Source of the DNA: a virus
Taxonomy: Duplodnaviria > Heunggongvirae > Uroviricota > Caudoviricetes
DNA: 22,862 nt
IMG/VR virus record: IMGVR_UViG_3300020582_000005
Reading direction: 5' to 3' (one strand)
Shown: positions 3,659 to 20,133 of the stretch, one piece after another
Layout of the letters: each line of letters starts with the position of its first letter
Position numbering within the stretch: position 1 is the first letter of the stretch
The notes under the pieces: generated by a model
What the model saw: only the letters and a program-made list of their open reading frames with translations
Database searches by the model: none
Told to the model about the DNA's origin: nothing
Position numbers and translations under genes: made by a program

Positions 3659-3748
3659 TGGCGGAGAGTGCAGGATTTGAACCTGCACAAGCTTTCGCTT
3701 GACTTCAGTTTAGCAAACTGACACGTTGCCGGATTCCGTCAACTCTCC
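3659..3748 (-). tRNA. tRNA-Ser(GCT)
   Basis: GGAGAGT/ACTCTCC acceptor, long V arm, loop TT-GCT-AA. Confidence 0.93.
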
Positions 3749-4182
3749 GAATTTTCTATCTTTGCATGATTCTTACGAGTGTCCACATCTCGTTTACAAA
3801 CTTTACAATAAGTGCCGCTACGACTATCATAAAACTCAGAAACCGGTAGTGCTCTCTTGTGTCGTGAACACCATCTCATGCCATCTGGAACATTATACGG
3901 TGAACGATAGTATGAATGAGGACGATTACAATCACAATGAGAAAAAGCGATATTATCTAAATCCCAAAACAAAGACGAATCTCGTCCTTCCCAAGGCTCT
4001 TTATGCTCAACACTCAAATCTTCGGCTACAGAAATTACTTGTTTACACTTAAAACAAACATTCTGTTGTAAACAAACGAGTAAATGAAAAAGAATATTCT
4101 TTCTCAGTTTATTTGCCGCTGCACCATGCGACATTCCCAATTGCTGAAAAATACGCTGCTTTCGTAATTCATCCTTATTCAT
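3739..4182 (-). CDS. HNH endonuclease-like protein
   Basis: CFKC...SVEH...DLDNIAFSHCDCN beta-beta-alpha-Me-like motif; stop lies inside tRNA-Ser(GCT). Confidence 0.75.
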   Translation of the reverse strand: MNKDELRKQRIFQQLGMSHGAAANKLRKNILFHLLVCLQQNVCFKCKQVISVAEDLSVEHKEPWEGRDSSLFWDLDNIAFSHCDCNRPHSYYRSPYNVPDGMRWCSRHKRALPVSEFYDSRSGTYCKVCKRDVDTRKNHAKIENSES

Positions 4183-4888: not shown

Positions 4889-4982
4889 TGGTAGTCGGAG
4901 CCAGATTCGAACTGACATCGTGCGCCAATCTAGCGCTTATACAGTTTATAAGACTGCCGCTCTACCATTGAGCTATCCGACT
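4889..4982 (-). tRNA. tRNA with TAT (Ile) anticodon and 24-nt variable region
   Basis: AGTCGGA/TCCGACT acceptor, loop CT-TAT-AA, V arm GCGCT/GGCGC, A73, CCA. Confidence 0.88.
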
Positions 4983-5553: not shown

Positions 5554-5632
5554 TGGTAGCGGGAGTCGGATTCGAACCGACGATAACGAGGTTATGAATC
5601 TCGTGTCTTAGGCCAGACTAGACGATCCCGCA
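5554..5632 (-). tRNA. tRNA-Met(CAT), initiator-like acceptor (U1.U72 mismatch)
   Basis: TGCGGGA/TCCCGCT, loop TT-CAT-AA; lacks three consecutive G-C anticodon pairs. Confidence 0.88.
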
Positions 5633-6018
5633 ATAGAAATCAAATTATGATCAAATTCCCAATGATGATTTGGACACAACGCTACCAAATTATTCAAATC
5701 ATTTATTTGAGCAATCGTAGCGTCATCAGGAAACTCAGATACTGCTTTCAAATGAGCGATCTCAACGTAATTAGAATATCCACATTTCGAACACTTTAGT
5801 TTATTACCACTTCGTTCCCAAATAGCAGCAGCGTGTTTTCTTATTGAACTTCTAGCTGACTGCCAATTCTTTCTCGAAGAAAATAAATCTTTCTTAGTTC
5901 TACTGCCCATAACTGAGTGCGAACTCTTAAATCTAGCGGCACAAGGACGACTACAAAACCGTAATTTAGGTTTATACGCCTCGAATTCAACGCCACAACT
6001 TAAACATAAACGCATCAT
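5608..6018 (-). CDS. HNH endonuclease
   Basis: CxxC motifs, EIAH...NNLVALCPNHH HNH motif; stop inside tRNA-Met. Confidence 0.88.
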   Translation of the reverse strand: MMRLCLSCGVEFEAYKPKLRFCSRPCAARFKSSHSVMGSRTKKDLFSSRKNWQSARSSIRKHAAAIWERSGNKLKCSKCGYSNYVEIAHLKAVSEFPDDATIAQINDLNNLVALCPNHHWEFDHNLISIAGSSSLA

Positions 6019-6295: not shown

Positions 6296-6371
6296 TGGTG
6301 GACCTAGTCGGCTCTGCCCCGACCGCCTCTGCTGTGCAAGAGCAGCGCTCTTCTTAATGAGCTACAGGCCC
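6296..6371 (-). tRNA. tRNA-Ala(TGC) with non-canonical D/T loops
   Basis: G3:U70, A73, loop CT-TGC-AC; T-loop GGCAGAG; D-loop without GG. Confidence 0.85.
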
Positions 6372-7589: not shown

Positions 7590-8003
7590 TTAAGCGTGAT
7601 CTCCTTTATCTCCCTTGGGACCTTGTGCTCCATCTTTTCCATCACGACCGGGAGCGCCATCTTTACCGGGATCGCCTTTCAAACCAGCTGGACCGAAAGG
7701 ACCTTGATCACCCTTGTCTCCCTTCATACCATCTTTACCGTCTGCTCCAGCTTTACCATCTAAACCTTTCGATCCTGCGTCCCCTTTGTCGCCTTTATTT
7801 CCTTGAGGACCTGTAGGACCTTCTACTCCGGATTTACCTTGCGGACCTGCTGGACCTACTGAACCTACATGACCCGCTAGCCCTGCGGGACCGACTGGAC
7901 CACGTGGACCTGCAGCACCAGGAACTCCGGAAACTTTATGAAACAAAGAAAAAATTAACGATACACCAGCAACACCAATAGCAATAAATGCTAGATCAAT
8001 CAT
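7590..8003 (-). CDS. Collagen-like protein with N-terminal membrane anchor
   Basis: Hydrophobic N-terminus then uninterrupted Gly-X-Y repeats. Confidence 0.9.
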   Translation of the reverse strand: MIDLAFIAIGVAGVSLIFSLFHKVSGVPGAAGPRGPVGPAGLAGHVGSVGPAGPQGKSGVEGPTGPQGNKGDKGDAGSKGLDGKAGADGKDGMKGDKGDQGPFGPAGLKGDPGKDGAPGRDGKDGAQGPKGDKGDHA

Positions 8004-8030: not shown

Positions 8031-8115
8031 TGGAGCAGGCTGGAAGACTCGAACTTCCGTGGGTTTTATCCGGCAGTTTACAAAACTGCTGCTGTCGCCT
8101 CTGAGCCAAGCCTGC
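8031..8115 (-). tRNA. tRNA-Thr(TGT) with extended variable region
   Basis: GCAGGCT/AGCCTGC, loop TT-TGT-AA, 14-nt V region, U73. Confidence 0.85.
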
Positions 8116-8494
8116 GAATTTTTCTTCCTTTACCCATATTCAAACTTCTGTAAGTAGGAGTCAAAGAATGACAATTCGGACACAACAAAATAAGATTCTC
8201 AATTTTATTGTTATCCCAATGTCCATCGATGTGTTCCAACTCAACTGGAGAATGTCCTGTTAAAGGATTAATCTCGTTCCAACCACACCGCTCGCACTTT
8301 TCTCCACGAACTTTAATCAGATAAGTTCGTATGTGAGCCGATGTTTTATTAGCACCCTTATTTTGAATAATACCGGATTCTTCACCCGAAAGCCATCTTT
8401 GAATCCAGTCATTCTGTAAAACTAAACGGGCACACTTTCTACAACCCTTTGCTGCTTTTGAAACTCGTATTCCACAGTACAGGCACACTTTCAT
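8078..8494 (-). CDS. HNH endonuclease
   Basis: CERCG...VELEHIDGHWDNNKIENLILLCPNCH; stop inside tRNA-Thr(TGT) anticodon loop. Confidence 0.92.
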   Translation of the reverse strand: MKVCLYCGIRVSKAAKGCRKCARLVLQNDWIQRWLSGEESGIIQNKGANKTSAHIRTYLIKVRGEKCERCGWNEINPLTGHSPVELEHIDGHWDNNKIENLILLCPNCHSLTPTYRSLNMGKGRKIRRLGSEATAAVL

Positions 8495-10598: not shown

Positions 10599-12212
10599 TT
10601 AAATCACTGGCTGAAAATCTTGAGATGTAGGATCGAAATCAGAACTTTCAACATCTCCATTTTCAGTAACCATATGGACTATGGCTGTACGCATGGCTCT
10701 AACTTCTAAAATCAACATTTGAATCAACTCTGTCAAGCCACGAGTGTCTTGGCTATTAGGAGAAATAGTAACCACTAAAGCCGAATCCGTATTAAGTGGC
10801 GCTATAGTTCCCGGTTTAACCGCAACCGGACCATTCACACCATCCGTAATTTCCATTGGCCAAGCGTTCACTAATGTATTAGGCGTGCCCTGATTCGCTG
10901 TGACTGTTCCGGAAATAGGAATTGCTATTCCACCTGTAAATCCTTCAATAATAACAGAACGACCACCTGCACCTAACGGTACGGGCTGATATTGAGGAGT
11001 GGCGTCATTTGATTCACCACCTATCACCAAGAAATTCGTTTCTGCGGTTGTACCGTCAGTTGTTGTACCGACAACATCGACATTTCCTGTGATAGTTGTT
11101 GATGTCAAAGATACAACCCAAGGACTTGTACCTTGAGTAACACTGACAGTTCCAGTAATGGCAACTGTGCCATTTGAACCTATATCTACTTTAAGTACAC
11201 CGGTTCCGGCGTCTACTTGAACTCTGCGCCAAACAGAATTGGTTGCATCCCATCCACCAAGCAAAGCAAATGTGTCTTCAGCATCCGTTGGATTTGCAAA
11301 CGTATCTGATGGAGTCTTTGCTCCCGCTACAATCCAAGGACTTGTCCCTTGTGTTACGCTGACTGTGCCGGTTATAGTTGTAGAACTTAGTGATACAACC
11401 CAAGGAGACGTTCCTTGAGTAACACTAACTGTTCCGGAGTCTACGATGACGTGTTGTGGAGCAGAAAAACTTATCGATCCGCTAATTGGAACAGCTGTTC
11501 CACCAGCGACACCTTCAATAATTACACTGCGACCAGCGGCTCCAAGCGGAATTGGTTGATACTGAGCAGTTGCATCGTTAGACTCGCCGCCAACTACTAG
11601 AAAAGGTGTCTCTGTTGTGCTACCATCTGTCGTTGTTCCGACAACGTTTACGTTTCCGGTAATCGTTGTAGAAACTAACGATACAACCCAAGGCGAGGTT
11701 CCTTGCGTGACACTGACACTTCCAGAAACAGTCACAGCAGGAGTATTCTCAATCAAAACTTTAAGTTGACCAGCCGCATCCGTTGATAGAACTCTTACAT
11801 CAGCTCCATCCCATCCTAACGCTGCTGTTCCTGTAGGAGTCGCAACTGCGGTACCCGTTGCGTACTGAGTGCCGCCACCGAAACTGGTAATTTGATCACC
11901 GTTAGCATTGACGATAGCTACGGCTATTGGAGTGGAATCTGTCAGATTGAATCCAGTGACACCAAACAAAGTGCCACCGATATTCACGCCTAGATAATCA
12001 GCGTCTGCTGGAACAGGAGCACCAGTAGGACCAGCTGCGGCGTTACCGCTTCCCCCGCCACCACCGATGCTGGTAACTTTTAAATTACCATTTATATCGA
12101 ACTGAAGAGAACAAGCCTGACCATCTGTTAAAGTAAAAGGAGCGAGATTATAAAATCCGCCGACTGTGAAAGGACCGTTATTCTGTCTTGTACTTCCCGG
12201 TCCCTGCGCCAT
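10599..12212 (-). CDS. Repeat-containing putative fibre/virion protein
   Basis: 537 aa; four VSVTQGTSPW(V/I)V motifs and two ~80-aa modules (TTITGNV..GGESNDAT.QYQP.PLGA.GRSVIIEG..PISG). Confidence 0.75.
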   Translation of the reverse strand: MAQGPGSTRQNNGPFTVGGFYNLAPFTLTDGQACSLQFDINGNLKVTSIGGGGGSGNAAAGPTGAPVPADADYLGVNIGGTLFGVTGFNLTDSTPIAVAIVNANGDQITSFGGGTQYATGTAVATPTGTAALGWDGADVRVLSTDAAGQLKVLIENTPAVTVSGSVSVTQGTSPWVVSLVSTTITGNVNVVGTTTDGSTTETPFLVVGGESNDATAQYQPIPLGAAGRSVIIEGVAGGTAVPISGSISFSAPQHVIVDSGTVSVTQGTSPWVVSLSSTTITGTVSVTQGTSPWIVAGAKTPSDTFANPTDAEDTFALLGGWDATNSVWRRVQVDAGTGVLKVDIGSNGTVAITGTVSVTQGTSPWVVSLTSTTITGNVDVVGTTTDGTTAETNFLVIGGESNDATPQYQPVPLGAGGRSVIIEGFTGGIAIPISGTVTANQGTPNTLVNAWPMEITDGVNGPVAVKPGTIAPLNTDSALVVTISPNSQDTRGLTELIQMLILEVRAMRTAIVHMVTENGDVESSDFDPTSQDFQPVI

Positions 12213-12222
12213 GTCTTCCTCT

Positions 12223-12648
12223 TTACAAATTCATTTTTATCTTTTGAATAACAGCTGTGACGATCTCACTTATACTTGGAGAATAACCAGGATCACCTTT
12301 TGGACCCTGTACTCCGGTTGCCCCGGTCGCTCCGGTCGCTCCTTGCGACCCCTGCGGACCCCGCTCCCCTGTGTCTCCCTTGGCACCTTGTGGTCCGGGT
12401 GTGTGACTGACACCTGCCTCACCACGATCCCCTTTGGGTCCGGGGATGCCTTGTGGTCCTCGTGGACCCGGCAGATTGGAAATGCCTGGATCGCCTTTTG
12501 GTCCTTGCCCACCAGGATCACCTTTGCGACTGGAAATTTGCTTTTGCTGTAATGTTATGTGATCTAAAAACTGTTGAACAGTCTTATTTTTTAAATCATT
12601 AAATTCAGCTCTAAGTTGTTCAATTTCTTTTTCTAAATCTACGCTCAT
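12223..12648 (-). CDS. Collagen-like protein with N-terminal coiled coil
   Basis: Gly-X-Y run after DLEKEIEQLRAEFNDLK. Confidence 0.88.
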   Translation of the reverse strand: MSVDLEKEIEQLRAEFNDLKNKTVQQFLDHITLQQKQISSRKGDPGGQGPKGDPGISNLPGPRGPQGIPGPKGDRGEAGVSHTPGPQGAKGDTGERGPQGSQGATGATGATGVQGPKGDPGYSPSISEIVTAVIQKIKMNL

Positions 12649-13571
12649 TACAAAACTCCTGATTCCAAATATTTAATTCGTTCTCGTAATTGCTTAATTT
12701 CCAAAGCTTGTTTAAAAACTAACTCTTCCCTCTTGTGTCGATCTCTAGGAACCCACACAAGATTACCCGGCATTATTCCTACAGATTTATCCACAACGTG
12801 GAGATCATAAAACTTACCTGGCTTAGGTCCTATTTCTTTTAACAAACAATTTTCGCCCTCAATAAAGGAACCACCTTTGTCATAATTCCAAGCATCATAA
12901 AAGGGCATATCCACATACCACTTTGTTTTAAGTCTAAAAATATAACGATGATGATTTCTAAGACTAGCAGCAATTGGGTGGCTTTGACTCCAGTTCCTAC
13001 ACCACTCATTTCTAAGCTTAGCGTGCCGCTGAACACTTTCAGACACCTTAGAATTAAGTTGAAAATTCAAAACGGCTGCTTCGTCATCGCTTCTTTCTGA
13101 AATGAATCCCACACTTTGTTTTTCTTGCAAAGAAAAATTCTTTATAAAATAATCTTTTTCTTGTAGTGGAATCGCCCACCTGAAATCGCTACGTCCTCGA
13201 CTTACAAATCTAACCTTAGTAAGTAAATTAGGGCATCGTCTATTAATTTGCGTTACTAATGTAGTACAATCGCTCTTGGTAATAGCCTTAGAAAAATTCA
13301 ACTCTTTTGCTAAATCGACTAATGGAATAAATTTTGAAGAATCTACGCCGTATCCTAATTTCTTTATAACACATTCTTTTTCCGATGCGGGAATGGCCCA
13401 TACCAAACCATCACGTACTCCAGATACTTTATCTAAATGAATTTTCCTAACTAAACCTGGAAATGCTCGCTCTATGAGTTCTCTAAAATTAGTAGAATCT
13501 GATTTCCTAATAGCCGCAGGCAAACCTAACTCTTTTGCTAAATCTAAAACCGTAATAAACCTTTCTTTCAT
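12648..13571 (-). CDS. Hypothetical protein with two N-terminal repeats and a degenerate HNH-like C-terminus
   Basis: ATG 13571 after GGAGG; repeats LDLAKELG/VDLAKELN...WAIP; C-term IGPKP..YDLHVVDK..G..PGNLVWV resembles the GxRP..SLDRIDNxxGYxPGNxRW pattern. Confidence 0.6.
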   Translation of the reverse strand: MKERFITVLDLAKELGLPAAIRKSDSTNFRELIERAFPGLVRKIHLDKVSGVRDGLVWAIPASEKECVIKKLGYGVDSSKFIPLVDLAKELNFSKAITKSDCTTLVTQINRRCPNLLTKVRFVSRGRSDFRWAIPLQEKDYFIKNFSLQEKQSVGFISERSDDEAAVLNFQLNSKVSESVQRHAKLRNEWCRNWSQSHPIAASLRNHHRYIFRLKTKWYVDMPFYDAWNYDKGGSFIEGENCLLKEIGPKPGKFYDLHVVDKSVGIMPGNLVWVPRDRHKREELVFKQALEIKQLRERIKYLESGVL

Positions 13572-13664
13572 TCTTTCCTCCACTAAGGAAAGCAGGGAGC
13601 AGTAGTGGCTGCTCCCGCCCGTTTAGCTAAACAAACTTAAATCTTTATTTATCGATAACTTACG

Positions 13665-13928
13665 TCAGTTCCCCCGGTACCCGTTGCCACTGACGCCGGG
13701 TGCTCCGTCACTACCAATGTCATTAAATCCTAGTTGCTGCCGATGTGCTTTCTTAGCAGCTGCGCCGTCATCACACTTTGCTTCTATAACTGCGCTAGCA
13801 GAAGGAAGAGAACCTTTTCTCAATGTAGCCTCTTCAGCGTTTGACTTACCACGACTATGCACCCCCGCATCGGGGTGGCTCATGTCGTGCTCGAATGCAC
13901 AATCAGGAATCGTTGTTTTAAAATTCAT
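13665..13928 (-). CDS. Hypothetical protein (87 aa; in-frame alternative start at 14021)
   Basis: AAAGGA SD before ATG 13928. Confidence 0.6.
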   Translation of the reverse strand: MNFKTTIPDCAFEHDMSHPDAGVHSRGKSNAEEATLRKGSLPSASAVIEAKCDDGAAAKKAHRQQLGFNDIGSDGAPGVSGNGYRGN

Positions 13929-14022
13929 AAAAATCCTTTTAAACCAAAAGAAAAAGCGGAAGTGTCTCCGTTTTCTTCCGCTTATTTTAATAGAAAGAGT
14001 AGCTCTGGATGTCTGCGGCATA

Positions 14023-14295
14023 TTATGCCCCAGAATCTGTAACCTGAATAACAACCGTGTCTGTGACGGCTGCGGTAGGAGTACCACTAATTAATCCACT
14101 AGATGATAGTGTTAAACCAGCTGGAAGACTACTTCCTGCTTGAAGCGACCATACATAAGGAGCGGTACCACCACTAGCTACAAGTTGTTCTGAATAAGCT
14201 TGTCCAACTTGTCCATTAGGCAACGATGTGGTAACAATAACTAGCGGTGATGGTGTAACAACTAAAGAAAAACTAGCAGTTGCTGTTTGTGGCAT
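14023..14295 (-). CDS. Putative Ig-domain (He_PIG-like) protein
   Basis: IVTTSLPNGQVGQAYSEQLVASGGTAPYVWS...LPAGLTLSSSGLISGTPT motif; GAGGGGG SD before ATG 14295. Confidence 0.85.
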   Translation of the reverse strand: MPQTATASFSLVVTPSPLVIVTTSLPNGQVGQAYSEQLVASGGTAPYVWSLQAGSSLPAGLTLSSSGLISGTPTAAVTDTVVIQVTDSGA

Positions 14296-14317
14296 ATAAG
14301 TCCCCCTCAGAACTAAT

Positions 14318-14518
14318 TTACAAATCATCTGCTCCTAAAATTCCTCTATTATCGAGCGGTGTTAATCCTACTCGTGTCAAAATAAAAATTATCTTGTCGC
14401 CAGCATACGTTTCTATCCGAAACTTAAAATCGCCATTAGCTTGTTTCTTTGTGACTAAGCGATATTCAGTCACACCTGCTTTCTCTCTTTCTGAAAAATA
14501 ATTATAAAGTGCCTGCAT
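14318..14518 (-). CDS. Hypothetical protein
   Basis: 66 aa, TAATG coupling with upstream ORF. Confidence 0.7.
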   Translation of the reverse strand: MQALYNYFSEREKAGVTEYRLVTKKQANGDFKFRIETYAGDKIIFILTRVGLTPLDNRGILGADDL

Positions 14519-14631
14519 TATTTCTTCCGTGTCAAAACGTACTCAAACTTCTTTTTCAAGAAAGTGACTAAAGTATTATGCTGCTTTTCCCACTCTTTAT
14601 ACGTCAGTTCTTGCTCAATTTTCTTATCCAC
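14518..14631 (-). CDS. Small hypothetical protein (37 aa, GTG start)
   Basis: AGGTGA SD; TAATG overlap with next gene. Confidence 0.6.
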   Translation of the reverse strand: MDKKIEQELTYKEWEKQHNTLVTFLKKKFEYVLTRKK

Positions 14632-14686
14632 TATTCACCTTTTAACTTAAGTGCCAGTTGTTTACCGTGGTGACTGGCAACCACTC

Positions 14687-14770
14687 TGGTCGGTCACAGA
14701 GGATTTGAACCTCTATGCTGTTAAGCGGCGGGGTTTAAGTCCGCTGCGTATGCCATTCCGCCAGTGACCG
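14687..14770 (-). tRNA. tRNA-Leu(TAA)
   Basis: Long V arm, A73, loop CT-TAA-AC; C1-G72. Confidence 0.9.
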
Positions 14771-14815
14771 AAGATTGTTTCTTATTTCTTCCACAATATG
14801 TTGATGTTTGTGAAT

Positions 14816-14900
14816 TGGTACGGCTAGAGGGATTTGAACCCCCATGGCTGTTAACCGGTAGGGTCTAAACCTACTGTGTCTGCCTTTCCACCACAGCCGT
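14816..14900 (-). tRNA. tRNA-Leu(TAG)
   Basis: Long V arm, A73, loop TT-TAG-AC. Confidence 0.92.
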
Positions 14901-14912
14901 ATAGTTTATTTC

Positions 14913-14997
14913 TGGTCGGTAATGAGGGAGTCGAACCCACATGAATTGCTTCGCCGCTTTTTGAGAACGGTGCGTCTGCCAGTTCCGCCAATCACCG
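14913..14997 (-). tRNA. tRNA-Leu(CAA)
   Basis: Long V arm, A73, loop CT-CAA-AA; C1-G72. Confidence 0.9.
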
Positions 14998-15001
14998 AAA
15001 A

Positions 15002-15271
15002 TTACATAATGTTTCCAAACAATAAAGCTGTTAACGAACAGCCTAACACAAAGAATAAGAAATCTATTCCAGAACTAAACCACGTTTGTTTATCTTCCCA
15101 AGGAGCACATCCTAAAGACTCCAGCGCCTCTTTGAAACCTGTAAAAAGAAGAGTCAACATAAATGGATGCCAGAAATGAACACGAGCGAATAAGAAAGGA
15201 AGATAAGCTCCCCAAGCTAAATGTGCTAACTGAGCCACCATCCAATTAAAATTATTTGGTTTCATGTCCAT
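15002..15271 (-). CDS. Small multi-pass membrane protein
   Basis: 89 aa with 2-3 hydrophobic segments. Confidence 0.7.
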   Translation of the reverse strand: MDMKPNNFNWMVAQLAHLAWGAYLPFLFARVHFWHPFMLTLLFTGFKEALESLGCAPWEDKQTWFSSGIDFLFFVLGCSLTALLFGNIM

Positions 15272-15647
15272 CTGGATACTTTGTATAATCCGATTCGATC
15301 TGCTTGACTGCTTCGGTCAAAGTCTTGAAACCGTAAACTGCCCATTTAGGTGCCGATTCGTTATCTACAGCTAAGCCTAGATTCCAAACATCTTCTGCTG
15401 GATGCTGATACAACCCAATCAAGTTATGTTCTTTTGCAAAAGCGTTAAACTGATCCCACGCTACTTGAGCTTCCTGTTCCGTTTCCGGACTATAAGCTAT
15501 CGGCTGCATCATAACAATCTTATTGTGCATCGGTTTAAATACTTCTACTCGGTGCATCTTCTGCAAATCGACAGCTGCTTGATCTAACTTCACTTTTACT
15601 ACACCAAGAGACAGTAAGGAAACCAACATTAGCAGAACTATTTTCAT
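15252..15647 (-). CDS. Hypothetical protein with N-terminal signal/anchor
   Basis: 131 aa; ATGA coupling. Confidence 0.72.
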   Translation of the reverse strand: MKIVLLMLVSLLSLGVVKVKLDQAAVDLQKMHRVEVFKPMHNKIVMMQPIAYSPETEQEAQVAWDQFNAFAKEHNLIGLYQHPAEDVWNLGLAVDNESAPKWAVYGFKTLTEAVKQIESDYTKYPDGHETK

Positions 15648-15808
15648 TTTCCACCGGGAAGGCTTAGTGATTCTGCCTTCAATTTTCTTAACTCTTCGTC
15701 CATAGCTTTCTTAAACATCTTAACGTGTCGCTTTGTCAAGATATAATCGTCGACAATCAAGCCTAACCAAATACAAATCAGATAAAAGATCAACCAAACT
15801 GGTAGCAT
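15644..15808 (-). CDS. Small membrane protein (54 aa, MLPVWLIFYLICIWLGLIVDD...)
   Basis: TAATG and ATGA overlaps with both neighbours. Confidence 0.7.
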   Translation of the reverse strand: MLPVWLIFYLICIWLGLIVDDYILTKRHVKMFKKAMDEELRKLKAESLSLPGGK

Positions 15809-16005
15809 TATCTACCGACAAAAAATGGGTTAGCTGATCCATCTAAATGCAATCGAACTTTCGGATTCGCTGGACCCCAAATAGTAATAACATAAGGATT
15901 AGGAGTTCCATCACTTAGTTTCGTTGCTTGCGAATGCAATGCGCCTGCGGCTTGCACCGATTCTTCTTCAATTTTAAATCCAACAACCGGTTTAGTTGCT
16001 GCCAT
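15808..16005 (-). CDS. Hypothetical protein
   Basis: 65 aa, AAGGAGA SD. Confidence 0.72.
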   Translation of the reverse strand: MAATKPVVGFKIEEESVQAAGALHSQATKLSDGTPNPYVITIWGPANPKVRLHLDGSANPFFVGR

Positions 16006-16014
16006 AAAATCTCC

Positions 16015-16314
16015 TTAAAATCCACCAGGGGCTGGATTGTTACTTGAATTCAAATTAACAATTTGAAAATTTACACCTGAGACATTAGCACCTGCCATCG
16101 TGACGCTATGAGAATAACGACAAGTCGTCGTAGCAACTCCTGTTGATATAACCGTCAAAACGTATGTTCTCAAGTCGGGAACAGTAAATGTAAAATTTCC
16201 GCTGGCATCACAAATATACGTTTGATTGATGTCACCTCTATCGGAGATTAATTCTATGGTGGCTCCGGAGCCAGTTGCTCCACCTACGTTTCCTGTGATC
16301 GTGAAATTTGCCAT
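16015..16314 (-). CDS. Beta-sandwich-like putative surface protein
   Basis: 99 aa; ITGNV..GATIEL...CDASGNFTF...YVLT pattern like carboxypeptidase-regulatory-like domains. Confidence 0.65.
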   Translation of the reverse strand: MANFTITGNVGGATGSGATIELISDRGDINQTYICDASGNFTFTVPDLRTYVLTVISTGVATTTCRYSHSVTMAGANVSGVNFQIVNLNSSNNPAPGGF

Positions 16315-16361
16315 GATACCTCAAAAGTGACTAGCCTTTCGTTTTCACACCGGCATAGCCC

Positions 16362-16435
16362 TGGTAGACCATCAGGGATTCGAACCCCGATTTCTCGTTA
16401 ATCGGACGAGCGTCCTACCGTTGGACGAATAGTCT
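16362..16435 (-). tRNA. tRNA-Ile(GAT) with atypical anticodon loop
   Basis: AGACTAT/ATGGTCT, loop CC-GAT-TA (C33, U37), CCA. Confidence 0.83.
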
Positions 16436-16508
16436 ATTTTATATTTATCACTGAATCTATACAAAGCCAAATCAAAACTGATAACAATATTGCTATAAGC
16501 CAAAACAT
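16434..16508 (-). CDS. Small membrane peptide (24 aa, MFWLIAILLSVLIWLCIDSVINIK)
   Basis: TAATG coupling; TAG overlaps first 2 nt of tRNA-Ile(GAT). Confidence 0.5.
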   Translation of the reverse strand: MFWLIAILLSVLIWLCIDSVINIK

Positions 16509-16642
16509 TAAAATGGTGTCAGAAAAGGAATCGAATCTTGAAGTGCTTTCTCAAATATGAAAGGACCCATGCCGGGAACTAAATCCCAAATTTCGTCATC
16601 AGTAAGTTCATCCTTTTCCGGTTTCTCTTTGTCTTCGTTCAT
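16508..16642 (-). CDS. Small acidic protein (44 aa, MNEDKEKPEKDELTDDEIWDLV...)
   Basis: AAAGGA SD immediately after the RNase P RNA 3' end. Confidence 0.65.
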   Translation of the reverse strand: MNEDKEKPEKDELTDDEIWDLVPGMGPFIFEKALQDSIPFLTPF

Positions 16643-16652
16643 AAAATTCCTT

Positions 16653-16951
16653 TGGAGAGTCGATAGCCCGGATTCTGTCTTCGCTCGTGCGAACGGAGAT
16701 GATCATTCGTCTGAGCTTCCTACCCGACCAGCAAAACTTGAGCTAGAAGGTCTGTTTGGAATTGCTACTCGTATGGAGTTATCTCCAGCCTGTAGGATAT
16801 CACTTAGGGCTGGCAGCTTTACCCGTCACGTTACCGTGCTTGCAGCTTCCACAATACGATTGCTCGTGTAGTCCGGAACTTCCTCAATCGACCAGCCGCC
16901 AATCTTATGAAGATTTGACGCTGCAATCGACTGCGATCATCTGACTCTCCA
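16653..16951 (-). ncRNA. rnpB: Ribonuclease P RNA (type A-like, reduced specificity domain)
   Basis: P1 TGGAGAGTC/GACTCTCCA; P2 AGATGATC/GATCATCT; CR-I GAGGAAGTTCCGGAC and CR-V ACAGAATCCGGGCTA forming P4; P5 CTAC/GTAG; P6 GAGC/GCTC; P7 TCGTAT/ATACGA; P15 TTCC/GGAA; L15 GGGTA; P16 GACC/GGTC; AGACGAAT before P2; P19 TTCGC/GCGAA. Confidence 0.92.
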
Positions 16952-16956
16952 GAATC

Positions 16957-16985
16957 AGAATATCGAACTCTTGGAACATTGTCAA
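16957..16985 (-). promoter_or_regulatory. sigma70-type promoter of the RNase P RNA
   Basis: TTGACA-17 bp-TATTCT; predicted start at about G16950, the first G of P1. Confidence 0.85.
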
Positions 16986-17084
16986 GCGTTATTTGCTGTC
17001 CCAAAGCTGTTGCAGAGGGTACACGAATTGTTCCAGAGTTGATAATAAAGGAATTATGCACGAAAATGAGTACAGACCTTTATT

Positions 17085-17625
17085 CTGTCACCGAGTACTG
17101 TCACTTAATGCTGTCACAAAATGGCGATCCTGTATACACCTATATAGATGTATATACCTTTATTGTCTATATAGGCGTATACACCTTATACCGTTACACT
17201 ATGTCGCCGGTCGAATTTTATGCATTTTGATACAATGACAGAATCTTTTATGCAGTGCGTCTGCAAGTTCTTTAGAATCAATTCACCACAGACGACGGAA
17301 ATATACTGTCACCTAGATAGTGTCACCTAGACGGAGAAAGAGAGAAAAGCTTATTTTTTAAATTTTTATATCAAAAGGAGAAGAAAAAGAATATAGATGG
17401 AGAACTATACCTCTTTTTATTGAAAACAAAGGACTTATAAGAAATTGAAAATAAAATGTAAAATAATCATTCAAAAATGAGATCAGATTTTTAAAATATA
17501 AGGTTTTAGTGTCTCTCCCACGGGGTGACAGTATTTTCATCGTTTTGCCAGCTAAGTCCTTTGTTCAGTAGGAGAAATACTGTCACTGAACTCGCTCGTA
17601 TTGTGTCACCTAGCCTAAGTGACAC
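17085..17625. repeat. TGTCAC iteron-like repeats with AT-rich tracts
   Basis: Copies near 17085, 17098, 17111 (13-bp period), 17307, 17321, 17581, 17604 and inverted copies near 17525, 17619. Confidence 0.7.
17151..17203. repeat. 18-bp inverted repeat with 17-nt spacer
   Basis: tgtatacacctatataga / tctatataggcgtataca (1 mismatch). Confidence 0.8.
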
Positions 17626-17683
17626 CTTCCGGCTTAACTTTTGAAAATAAAATGCAAAATAAAATTGAAAATTATTTTTAAAT

Positions 17684-18220
17684 TTAGATGTGAACTTTTT
17701 CTATAGAAATTATTATTTTGAATTCGTCGTCTCCAGCTTCTAATACTTCACTAACTAGTAGTGCCCAAGATCGCAGAGCAGTAGCCATTTCTTTCGCTCT
17801 TCCAGTTTTTTGAAATTTTGTGTAATCAGATGGTAGGTGTAATCCAGAGAGTTTAGCTCGTTCTACTAAATCCCACACTCCTAAGCCAGGACATTTGTTG
17901 GTAGCAGCTAAATGAAAGTTTTTAGAAGCTAGTTTTTGAGCAAGGTTGAGAGTTTCTTTACTCTCTTGTAGGCATGTTTTGAGTTCCCGAAGAGTTTTCT
18001 GTAATATGTTGTCATCGTTTAAATCTTTGTTTTCAAGAGCTTGTCTAAGTTGCAGTTTTAAGCAACCACAACTTTTAGTTCTTCCCGATTGAAGCTTATC
18101 TCCTCTAGCGATGGTAGTTTTACCGCAGTCACAATGGCATAACCATAATTGATGGCTTGAGTGGCTCCTCTCAAATTTTTCTACAACTAATCTTTCAAAC
18201 CGATCACCTTCTTTAATCAT
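17684..18220 (-). CDS. Protein with N-terminal Cys-rich module of HNH/AP2-family endonucleases, no catalytic domain seen
   Basis: GDRFERLVV...WLCHCDCGKT...L.SGRTKSCGCL; AGGAG SD before ATG 18220. Confidence 0.72.
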   Translation of the reverse strand: MIKEGDRFERLVVEKFERSHSSHQLWLCHCDCGKTTIARGDKLQSGRTKSCGCLKLQLRQALENKDLNDDNILQKTLRELKTCLQESKETLNLAQKLASKNFHLAATNKCPGLGVWDLVERAKLSGLHLPSDYTKFQKTGRAKEMATALRSWALLVSEVLEAGDDEFKIIISIEKVHI

Positions 18221-18259
18221 AATCGCTCCTGGGCGGGGTATTATACCCCGGTCAAGTAT

Positions 18260-18288
18260 AGGATAACACAAGTGTTAGTTAATGTCAA
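18260..18288 (-). promoter_or_regulatory. sigma70-type promoter (leftward)
   Basis: TTGACA-17 bp-TATCCT with TGn. Confidence 0.7.
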
Positions 18289-18858
18289 GAGGTATTTTGG
18301 GTTTAATAAGTCCTGGGCGGGTGTAGTGGGTGGTATACCCCACCCTGTAAGTATATGAAAATAAAGTATTTGTGGCAAATTTTAATTTCTGCCGATCTAC
18401 CCTTGGGGGCTGGTCGCACGGGTCCGATTCTAATAGACTGATTCTAAAATACTTAGCAATCAAAGCGATTTAGCCTCTTCACTAAGTCTTTTATTTTGAA
18501 TAACTTAACTTTTGCCCTCGATTCCCTTGCGTTCCGGAACGTTGCATCGCTTGCAAAACGCCTAAAATCGTTGATTCATTGCAGGTTTAAGTCTTTTATT
18601 ATCATTACATTAGCCTTGCAATAGAATACACTAATCAATCTCCCTACTGCGAGCCGAAAACAGTGAATTTTCCGCATAAATTGCTGAAAACAAACAATTT
18701 GTTGCGTATTTTCTCGAATTTTTCGGCAAAATTTTCATTTCTATAGTATTTCCTCGCACGTGTAACCTGTCCAATCGGCTCGCTATCGCTTATAACTCTT
18801 TTATTTTGTTCAATTTATCTAAGTATAAAATTATTCTTCGTTTCGCCTTGAAAATATG

Positions 18859-18887
18859 TTGACAGGACACACTCAATATGGTAAGAT
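18859..18887 (+). promoter_or_regulatory. sigma70-type promoter (rightward)
   Basis: TTGACA-17 bp-TAAGAT with TGn, AT-rich upstream. Confidence 0.75.
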
Positions 18888-19054
18888 AATTGCGGGAGAA
18901 TTGTATGCGAAAATGTAGAAAATGCAGTGTGGAAACAGTTTAAAATCAGACGCTTCCGACAAAGAGTTAATCGCTCTGGGAAGAGACGCAAAACGAAGAA
19001 AATTATCCTCGTAATATTATCATTCTAAACGTGATATTTTCTTGTAAATAAAGC

Positions 19055-19085
19055 TTGCAATTGTCAGAGTGAACTGTGATATACT
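19055..19085 (+). promoter_or_regulatory. Possible extended -10 promoter
   Basis: TGA-TATACT; TTGCAA 19 bp upstream (suboptimal spacing). Confidence 0.5.
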
Positions 19086-19104
19086 CTGATCGAAGGGAGA
19101 ACCG

Positions 19105-19272
19105 ATGCGACGATACCAAACAAAGAAGTATACCAAAGCACAAGGTGAGCATATTCTTTGGCACGTTCTAGGACACTTGCAATACGATCAACCCGGAACG
19201 TCCGAAGGATACCCGGAGACATGGCTTGCGATTCAACAAATCAAGCAATTGCTAGGCGTCTCAGTAGCTTAG
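19105..19272 (+). CDS. Small hypothetical protein (55 aa)
   Basis: GGGAGA SD, manual translation MRRYQTKKYTKAQGEH... Confidence 0.65.
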   Translation: MRRYQTKKYTKAQGEHILWHVLGHLQYDQPGTSEGYPETWLAIQQIKQLLGVSVA

Positions 19273-19311
19273 GTAATTGAGAGTAAAATCTACTCAAAGA
19301 GGATAAACAAA

Positions 19312-20133
19312 ATGCGAACCTATCACGCAATGAGCAACGAAGAGATACAACGATACGCTCCGTCGGCGTTCGCAGGGCAACCGTATCAAGCGATGTCTGA
19401 TCGTTATGCCTTCGTCCCAACGTCCGAAGTAATTGACGGTATGCGTTCCGCCGGATTCAATCCAGTTCTGGCATCGCAGTCTTCTAGCAGGATTGCAGAC
19501 AAGAAAAACTTCACTAAGCATATGATTCGTTTCCGGTCCGCAAACAGTCAATTGACTAACGTCGGAGACTCGGACCTTGAAACGGTTTTGATTAACTCTC
19601 ACGATGGAACGTCACGCTACGTTTTGATGCTTGGCGTGTTCCGTCTTGTCTGTAGCAATGGTTTAATCGTGGCAGATTCGCTTGTCACTGCCATTAAGGT
19701 CCGACACATTGGCAACATCATACAGAGCGTAATCGATGGTTCACTCGAATTGATCGATCAGGCACCGAAAATACAGAAGACTATCGACACTTGGCGAACA
19801 ATCACGTTAACGGAACAGGAGCAAGGTGTATTTGCGCAGTCTGCACATATGCTCCGTTTTCCGGAACAGGAAAGCACGCTGGCACAAGCCATCAAACCCG
19901 CATCATTGCTTAAGGCTCGCCGGTATGACGATACTGGCAGTGACCTTTGGTCTACATTCAACCGTGTGCAAGAAAACGCCATTCAAGGCGGTATGCGTGG
20001 CATAGTTCGCAATGGTTACCGCCTGTCACGTCGAACCGCACGTTCTGTCACTGGAATAGATCAGAACGTCAACCTGAACAAAGCACTATGGCGTCTAGCA
20101 GAGGAAACGGCACAAGCAAAGCAGAGCAACTAG
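19312..20133 (+). CDS. DUF932/DUF945 family protein
   Basis: APSAFA..SDRYAFVPT..KHMIRFR..LINSHDGTSRY...G.FRLVCSNG..RRYDD...DLWSTFNRVQEN motifs. Confidence 0.9.
   Translation: MRTYHAMSNEEIQRYAPSAFAGQPYQAMSDRYAFVPTSEVIDGMRSAGFNPVLASQSSSRIADKKNFTKHMIRFRSANSQLTNVGDSDLETVLINSHDGTSRYVLMLGVFRLVCSNGLIVADSLVTAIKVRHIGNIIQSVIDGSLELIDQAPKIQKTIDTWRTITLTEQEQGVFAQSAHMLRFPEQESTLAQAIKPASLLKARRYDDTGSDLWSTFNRVQENAIQGGMRGIVRNGYRLSRRTARSVTGIDQNVNLNKALWRLAEETAQAKQSN

Follow-up and report, generated by a model that had tools for sequence, protein, structure and literature searches.

The window analyzed here is a stretch of 22,862 nucleotides that corresponds to bases 11237-34098 of a 109,128-bp IMG/VR record of a soil phage, rated 100% complete by CheckV. 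Genes for a large terminase, a portal/adaptor protein, a primase-helicase, a helicase, and NAMPT are found in the record, and those in the window include the genes for GP88, DUF932/phrog_12094, and HNH proteins. On the minus strand, an RNA gene is accompanied by promoter-like hexamers, a small open reading frame (ORF), and an array of tRNA genes:

16985-16957, minus strand: promoter-like sequence TTGACA-17-TATTCT, conserved in the related contig L248 and covered by RNA-library contigs; its role is uncertain
16952..16648, minus strand: RNase P RNA gene, bacterial type A, 305 nt, as placed by the RF00010 alignment
16508..16642, minus strand: putative conserved acidic 44-aa ORF that starts 5 nt past the RNA; conserved in L248 and L268
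2970..16435, minus strand: array of 32 tRNA genes, all with an encoded CCA, with HNH and other small genes between them

This arrangement recurs in other assemblies. L248 (identical to L271) has the same succession of elements as the phage, namely the RNA, the small ORF, a tRNA-Ile, three tRNA-Leu, and a gene for a 537-aa protein that is 90% identical between the two, and L268 shares the part of the gene order that comprises the RNA, the small ORF, and the tRNA-Ile. With the gene order repeated in independent assemblies, it is very unlikely that the contig is chimeric or cellular. The viral context of the contig, on which the original prediction depended, is thus borne out by the terminase, portal, and primase/helicase genes, by the 100% CheckV completeness, and by this synteny. 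The same prediction noted that no RnpA gene was visible, and this was confirmed across the full genome: a search with PF00825 gave no match in the 109 kb at an E value of ≤1, and the same search was positive in 10 of 14 control genomes. Among 20 neighboring ORFs, Pfam and PHROGs searches detected no RNA-processing protein. Further upstream of the RNA, an AT-rich intergenic region (17076-17330) resembles an operator or iteron array: CTGTCAC-type repeats occur in it at least five times and GTATACACCT three times, together with an 18-nt inverted repeat (17131-17148 / 17166-17183).

The RNA at 16952..16648 is a homologue of RNase P RNA. A cmscan of the window (16952..16648, minus strand) returned a full-length match to RF00010 (RNaseP_bact_a), covering model positions 1-367 with 101 bits and an E value of 3.6e-30, and the same match was returned from the whole genome record. 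The gathering score of RF00010 is 100 bits, and therefore the phage RNA clears the cutoff by only 1 bit. The covariance-model search proposed as a check on the claim of a ~300-nt RNase P RNA was thus significant, albeit borderline, with an end-to-end match of 305 nt above the gathering score. Among the models of the Rfam clan, the bacterial model was the best match. Two big departures from RF00010 were apparent: 104 model positions of the specificity domain correspond to 45 nt in the phage RNA, and the 24 positions of P18 correspond to none. The interval originally pointed out, 16653-16985, comprises the RNase P RNA together with the promoter-like hexamers. BLAST searches with the phage RNA and with the whole window gave no match among 50,697 GenBank phage records. 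No published phage-encoded RNase P RNA was found in the full-text literature, the coverage of which leaves out most subscription journals, and an earlier report may exist. In a 2024 review of RNase P in JBC, phages appear only as sources of substrates (PMC11143913), and a survey of huge phages nowhere mentions RNase P (PMC7162821).

Each of the helices that had been proposed (P1, P2, a long P3, P5, P6, P7, P15 with its GGU, P16, and P19) was located in the sequence. The elements of the RNA are as follows:

16950-16943 / 16661-16654, minus strand: P1, GGAGAGUC/GACUCUCC
minus strand: P2, AGAUGAUC/GAUCAUCU
16885..16933, minus strand: long P3 hairpin of 49 nt with an internal loop, from RNAfold of the segment in eight relatives and the Rfam alignment
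16872..16885, minus strand: J3/4 and the 5′ strand of P4 with its bulged U, GAGGAAGUUCCGGA, pairing with 16672-16665
16825..16859, minus strand: 5′ strand of P7, P8 (UUGUG/UGCAA), and P9 (GUAA loop), placed by covariation
16776..16824, minus strand: reduced specificity domain with P10/11 (GGGU/ACUC, 4 bp), one P12 hairpin, and AUAACUCC
16717..16765, minus strand: GCAA (A248-like), P15 (UUCC/GGAA), P16, and a loop with the 3′ strand of P6 and the GGU
16765-16762, minus strand: the A248-like GCAA
16743-16740, minus strand: 3′ strand of P6, GCUC, whose partner is GAGC in J5/7
16724-16722, minus strand: GGU in the P15/16 loop, which would pair with the 3′-CCA of tRNA
16680..16712, minus strand: J18/2 (AGACGAAUGA) straight after P15, then the 3′ strand of P2 and the P19 hairpin
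16665..16678, minus strand: J19/4 (ACAGAA) and the 3′ strand of P4, UCCGGGCU

The phage RNA has kept its catalytic core intact. P4 retains the bulged U and lies between the conserved J3/4 (GAGGAA) and J19/4 (ACAGAA); it reads AGU(U)CCGGA:UCCGGGCU in the phage compared to AAG(U)CCGGG:CCCGGCUU in E. coli M1, the latter sequence being taken from NC_000913.3. This is exactly the reading given in the original prediction, with the bulged U kept and the changes compensated: from E. coli M1 to the phage, an A:U pair becomes G:C, a G:C pair becomes U:G, and the terminal G:C pair becomes A:U. The P15/P16 loop contains the GGU, J5/15 contains an A248-like residue, and a P6 pseudoknot connects J5/7 with the P16/17 loop. 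In alignment A5, where E. coli M1 is set against seven phage RNAs, A65, A66, U69, A248, A249, G292, G293, and U294 (E. coli numbering) are invariant, as are the J18/2 and J2/4 positions. In RNase P RNA from E. coli, A248 reads the U at position -1 of the substrate.

The specificity domain (P7 to P14, CR-II, and CR-III), in contrast to the core, is incomplete. P5, P7, P8, P9, P10, and P12 are all present, and the CR-III-like AUAACUCC resembles the E. coli stretch UAAACUCC at the same place. Of the CR-II stretch only UAAAG is left, and P13/P14 are absent, as seen both in the Rfam alignment and in a comparison of segments. By the same two comparisons P18 is absent as well, with just GCUC between P15 and J18/2. 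Such losses have precedents, since P18 is dispensable in some bacteria (PMC8172020) and natural bacterial and archaeal RNase P RNAs also occur without P13/P14 (PMC8172020, PMC4919922).

Seven further members of this RNA sub-family (L248, L268, L040, L269, L272, L264, and L270) were obtained by pattern scans of IMG/VR and JGI metagenomes and by a protein-based search. All seven match RF00010 end to end, with scores of 77 to 132 bits, and three of them fall below the cutoff (77 to 85 bits); routine annotation will therefore overlook the class. Every member of the sub-family lies inside a tRNA array, with the RNA and the tRNAs on the same strand. The eight sequences were aligned (alignment A4; mean column identity, 51%), and the core structure, consisting of 51 pairs in P1, P2, P4, P5, P7, P8, P9, P10, and P15, was scored. 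With the structure as drawn, 96.3% of the cells showed standard pairing compared to 33 to 38% when the 3′ partners were slid by 1 to 3 columns. Likewise, both sides had changed in 25 of the 51 pairs compared to 4 to 8, and the covariation score was 0.518 compared to 0.065 to 0.093. None of 500 column shuffles reached the observed pairing, double changes, or covariation score.

The individual helices show the same trend. In P4, 100% of the cells pair, double changes are seen in three of the eight pairs (three pair types for each), and none of the eight sequences has lost the bulged U. Double changes were also found in four of five pairs of P7, two of P8, one of P9, and three of four of P15. P6, which was read by eye from the segments (the MAFFT alignment put it out of register), covaries in six complementary versions: GAGC:GCUC in this phage, GAGU:ACUC, AGGG:CCCU, GGUCA:UGACC, UUAGACA:UGUCUAG, and UAGAC:GUCUA. 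The periphery is variable, P3 ranging from 18 to 71 nt and P12 from 17 to 60 nt, with P19 present or absent. Six members have nothing in the P18 slot; L248 and L272 have two hairpins there. These results show selection on the fold, including the compensated P4, and the pattern of variation is that of a working structured RNA rather than a decaying copy. When the sub-family signature GCACNGTAANGTGACGGGTAA was searched for in 185,579 species genomes, the one match, in Canibacter, was due to chance and contained no RNase P RNA.

More distant RNase P RNAs, 225 to 365 nt in length and scoring 63 to 308 bits, were found inside tRNA arrays on viral contigs of 22 to 463 kb. An RF00010-like RNA on the same strand as the adjoining or enclosing tRNA array is present in this phage and in L016, L047, L041, L040, L004, L021, L111, L219, L248, L264, L269, L270, and L272. 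An IMG/VR scan with ACAGAATCCGGGCT gave 82 matches, of which L219 alone contained an RNase P RNA. The RNA of L219 (6009-6233, minus strand, in a 263-kb contig) is a 225-nt RNase P-like RNA among tRNAs that matches the whole of RF00010 at 63 bits; only 152 nt separate its two P4 strands, meaning that nearly the whole specificity domain is gone. Two other RNase P RNAs, at L041 5399-5667 and L004 976-1255 (both minus strand; 269 to 280 nt), keep the specificity-domain junctions ACAGAGACGAG / GUGAAACG, and in L041 a 4-nt loop seems to stand in for P12.

A number of candidates were rejected. Most matches from a scan with TGTGGAAGNTGCANGCAC were due to chance, and the metagenome matches L266, L267, and L273 were coding-sequence look-alikes. 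When E. coli M1 and a different phage RNase P RNA were used as BLAST queries against GenBank phages, only host-like matches came back. Among the latter, Acinetobacter "phage" contigs and a Salmonella record look like host DNA, and the match in Microcystis phage MaAM05 lies among fabI, engB, mtgA, and glyS; none of these was taken as support. The unannotated rnpB-like stretch of MaAM05 (MW495066.1, 111323-119518; L276) looks like host chromosome in a phage record. No RNase P RNA was seen in the contigs of L249 and L250, whose relationship rests on the 537-aa protein; these contigs may stop short of it.

A TTGACA-17-TATTCT promoter was originally proposed to point at the first G of P1. The hexamers are present, but promoter-like sites in the region are no more common than in shuffled sequence (2 found compared to 2.7 expected), and a promoter scan revealed no convincing sigma-70 promoter for a start at ~16985. 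Words of the RNA were found in three soil metatranscriptome runs from 2018, perhaps from one campaign, with shares of 1.00, 0.96, and 0.48. Run X5, with about half of the words, gave no contig and was counted neither way, and uncovered stretches in the RNA runs were likewise given no weight. The other two runs gave one contig each across the locus:

16653-16984: contig from run X2, no differences from the window, depth 54.5
16670-16986: contig from run X3, no differences from the window, depth 31.2

Every other phage piece in these two runs (window positions 12000-20000) had a depth of 2 to 6, where depth is one figure per assembled contig in runs chosen for containing the RNA, leaving the strand, the true ends, and the level uncertain. 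The 3′ end of the longer contig, at 16653, is 1 nt past P1. The contigs begin at 16984 and 16986, which is 32 to 34 nt upstream of P1 and over the proposed -35 hexamer, and a contig from a DNA run continues beyond the ends of the RNA contigs, to 16998. Because two RNA-library contigs span both hexamers, it is doubtful that transcription starts where proposed, at P1's first G. The positions 16984-16986 could be the 5′ end of a precursor or a different start site, and they weakly suggest that transcription sometimes begins near 16985. As judged from the assembled contigs, the RNA-library result fits a stable, abundant RNA.

The putative 44-aa ORF is closely associated with the RNA, its AAGGA ribosome-binding site being located within the RNA's 3′ tail. 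The predicted peptide is 44 to 45 aa long, has a pI of 4.05, and shares the conserved end ...VPGMGPF..DSIPFLTPF; the ORF begins at 4459 in L248 and at 1570 in L268. It has no match in Pfam. In the bolder and rather doubtful explanation given below, this acidic peptide might be a new accessory factor.

The RNA is found at the head of the tRNA array in this phage as well as in L248 and L268. Downstream of it and on the same strand, ARAGORN detected 30 tRNAs. Two more were added, namely tRNA-Ala(UGC) at 6296-6371, which was found by Rfam only, and tRNA-Ser(CGA), which was found by ARAGORN at a relaxed threshold, giving 32 tRNAs for all 20 amino acids. The complete tRNA set that had been claimed is therefore present. 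The term "operon," by comparison, holds only in part: the RNA does lie upstream of the full set, but the array is broken by 1.3 to 6 kb of protein-coding genes, and a single transcript from the RNA through every tRNA is uncertain. Some of the tRNAs are tightly packed, as 14 of them are only 0 to 4 nt from the preceding tRNA, with a spacer that is usually AT. At such a spacing, cleavage at a tRNA's 5′ end leaves the tRNA upstream with a nearly finished 3′ end. The base at position -1 is T (U) in most of the 32, and fourteen tRNAs start with a base other than G.

Several genes in the array are unusual. The tRNA-Ala(UGC) (6296-6371, minus strand; Rfam score, 42 bits) has G3:U70, an encoded CCA, and a T loop of GGCAGAG instead of the usual UUCGAAU type, and it was overlooked by ARAGORN at default settings. 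A tRNA-Ile(UAU) with a long variable arm (90 to 95 nt) is found at 4889-4982 (minus strand) in the window and also at L040 2088-2182, L264 10424-10514, L269 900-990, and L270 3100-3190; it is common to most phages with this RNase P RNA sub-family. The stop codons of three HNH ORFs (3739-4182, 5608-6018, and 8078-8494, minus strand) lie 10, 25, and 38 nt, respectively, inside the next tRNA gene. RNase P cleavage at the 5′ end of the tRNA would strip the stop codon from these HNH mRNAs. Small proteins with collagen repeats and Ig-like/CarboxypepD_reg-like domains are encoded among the tRNA genes at 7590-8003, 12223-12648, 14023-14328, and 16015-16314 (minus strand), a content that is unusual for a tRNA region.

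The explanation that we consider probable, taken as a whole, is that the phage RNA is a slimmed-down bacterial type-A RNase P RNA that acts as a functional ribozyme, made during infection and trimming the 5′ leaders of phage pre-tRNAs, likely with host RnpA. The activity is a prediction from the sequence and its relatives. In this scheme, the RNA would be transcribed in the infected cell and would bind the host RnpA; since the phage has no rnpA, any protein partner must come from the host. Bacterial RnpA proteins swap between species, and pre-tRNA is cleaved by the C-domain alone whether or not RnpA is present, at lower rate and affinity (PMC4919922). The RNA, together with the host RnpA, would then cut the 5′ leaders off the phage's own tRNA precursors. 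The cleavage site would be set by the core formed by the bulged U of P4, J3/4, J18/2, and J19/4, with the GGU in the P15/16 loop pairing with the 3′-CCA and the A248-like adenosine reading U(-1).

Reading of the tRNA elbow would be mostly lost, as P13/P14 and most of CR-II are gone, and the P18 brace is gone too; with CR-II so reduced, binding to the tRNA elbow may be weak. Recognition of the acceptor end would suit the phage tRNAs, all 32 of which encode CCA and most of which have U(-1). An elbow-independent ribozyme might also suit the odd tRNAs, such as those with the GGCAGAG T loop, the long-arm tRNA-Ile(UAU), and those starting with a base other than G. The benefit to the phage may be extra capacity or, alternatively, not having to rely on the host enzyme under host shut-off or tRNA-directed defense. 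A bolder version of this explanation holds that the phages possess a specific RNase P RNA lineage that co-evolved with its own packed, CCA-encoding, partly atypical tRNAs, shed the elbow-reading domain, and came to depend on acceptor-end cues. This would be a semi-orthogonal maturation module that sustains phage translation when the host RNase P becomes limiting, has been shut off, or is a target; we regard it as a tentative and rather doubtful extension.

Other explanations have to be weighed against a functional phage ribozyme. One is that the RNA is a decoy or sponge, a poor catalyst that keeps the RnpA-binding core and titrates the host RnpA or another RNase P partner, thereby depressing host tRNA maturation or redirecting the protein. 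The need for a host protein partner and the reduced specificity domain are both consistent with this. However, the elements that handle the substrate (the GGU that pairs with CCA, the A248-like adenosine, and the P6/P15/P16 module) are conserved or covarying, and the phage's own 32 tRNAs need RNase P, meaning that the phage itself would suffer if RnpA were locked up in a dead complex. A decoy is therefore unlikely. It is also quite unlikely that the RNA is a specialized endonuclease for non-tRNA or hybrid phage transcripts, with general tRNA maturation being left to the host enzyme. The HNH-tRNA junctions would be the obvious targets, with three HNH ORFs ending inside the next tRNA gene, and a reduced specificity domain could relax the choice of substrate. 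However, any RNase P, including that of the host, would cut at the 5′ ends of those tRNAs, the arrays of the relatives have different gene content, and nothing specifically ties the RNA to the overlaps. The cutting of the HNH-tRNA overlaps, raised as a possibility in the original prediction, is a conjecture.

The remaining two alternatives deny the RNA a role in the phage. If it were a captured host rnpB fragment drifting to loss, a borderline Rfam score and missing P13/P14 and P18 would be expected, and these are indeed found. Nevertheless, a functionless passenger would hardly show compensatory changes in nearly every helix across eight sequences, an invariant core, retention in several phage lineages, and presence in RNA libraries. 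Moreover, the relatives are not one recent clone, as the mean column identity of 51% indicates, and the clade signature is missing from the 185,579 species genomes bar the one chance match; we consider this explanation highly improbable. Finally, the contig could be cellular or chimeric and the RNA the cell's own rnpB, as some GenBank "phage" records, for instance that of Microcystis phage MaAM05, do carry host rnpB. This is hardly credible here, given the TerL, portal, and primase/helicase genes, the 100% complete 109-kb genome, and the gene order repeated in the independent assemblies of L248 and L268.

Few ribozymes are common to all domains of cellular life; RNase P RNA, which trims the 5′ ends of tRNAs, is among them. 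Genes related to translation are already known in viruses and include those for tRNAs, tmRNA, and aminoacyl-tRNA synthetases. A selected, expressed phage copy of RNase P RNA adds the catalytic RNA of tRNA maturation to this list. The RNA is otherwise treated as a marker of cells and is required in checks of genome completeness (PMC8172020). The phage RNase P RNAs, with lengths of 225 to 330 nt, can also be regarded as natural minimization experiments, with P12, P13/14, and P18 being present or absent by lineage; the parts of the ribozyme needed for each substrate are therefore directly testable. Distinctive of the RNA described here are its position at the head of the array, the compensated P4, the archaeal-like architecture, the RNA-library signal, and the conserved 44-aa ORF.

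Compared to E. coli M1 and the RF00010 type-A model, the phage RNA has in common P1 to P12, P15 to P17, and the P4 and P6 pseudoknots, and with E. coli M1 it also shares the bulged U of P4, J3/4, J18/2, J19/4, the GGU, and the A248-like A. It differs from M1 in its length (305 nt compared to 377 nt), in being without P13/P14 and P18 and with a reduced CR-II, and in its long P3 and extra P19. Moreover, it is encoded by a virus, heads a tRNA array, and has no adjoining rnpA. Archaeal type-A RNase P RNAs are also without P13/P14 and P18 (PMC4919922). The architecture of the phage RNA is alike in this respect, whereas its sequence is bacterial and the bacterial P15/16 loop with GGU is retained along with P6/P16/P17. 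The RNase P RNAs of the Candidate Phyla Radiation lack P13, P14, P18, and sometimes more, fall below the Rfam thresholds, and required manual refolding (Lui et al. 2021, PMC8172020). In those organisms, however, the RNA is the cell's only, essential copy, whereas the phage RNA is an extra, viral copy that retains P12 and the GGU.

Among viruses, the sole relative found in the literature, with most subscription journals outside the coverage, is the RNase P-like RNA of camelpox, which was reported to be without pre-tRNA processing activity in vitro (PMC3001073). Camelpox is a eukaryotic virus with no tRNA genes to serve, whereas the phage RNA has an intact catalytic core and 32 tRNA genes. Other ribozymes, the theta/HDV-like ribozymes, occur in phage tRNA clusters and have been proposed to aid the maturation of tRNA ends (Kienbeck et al. 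2024, PMC10879173). These are small, self-cleaving, and cis-acting, with a proposed role in 3′ processing, whereas the phage RNase P RNA is a homologue of the trans-acting, multiple-turnover enzyme that matures the 5′ end.
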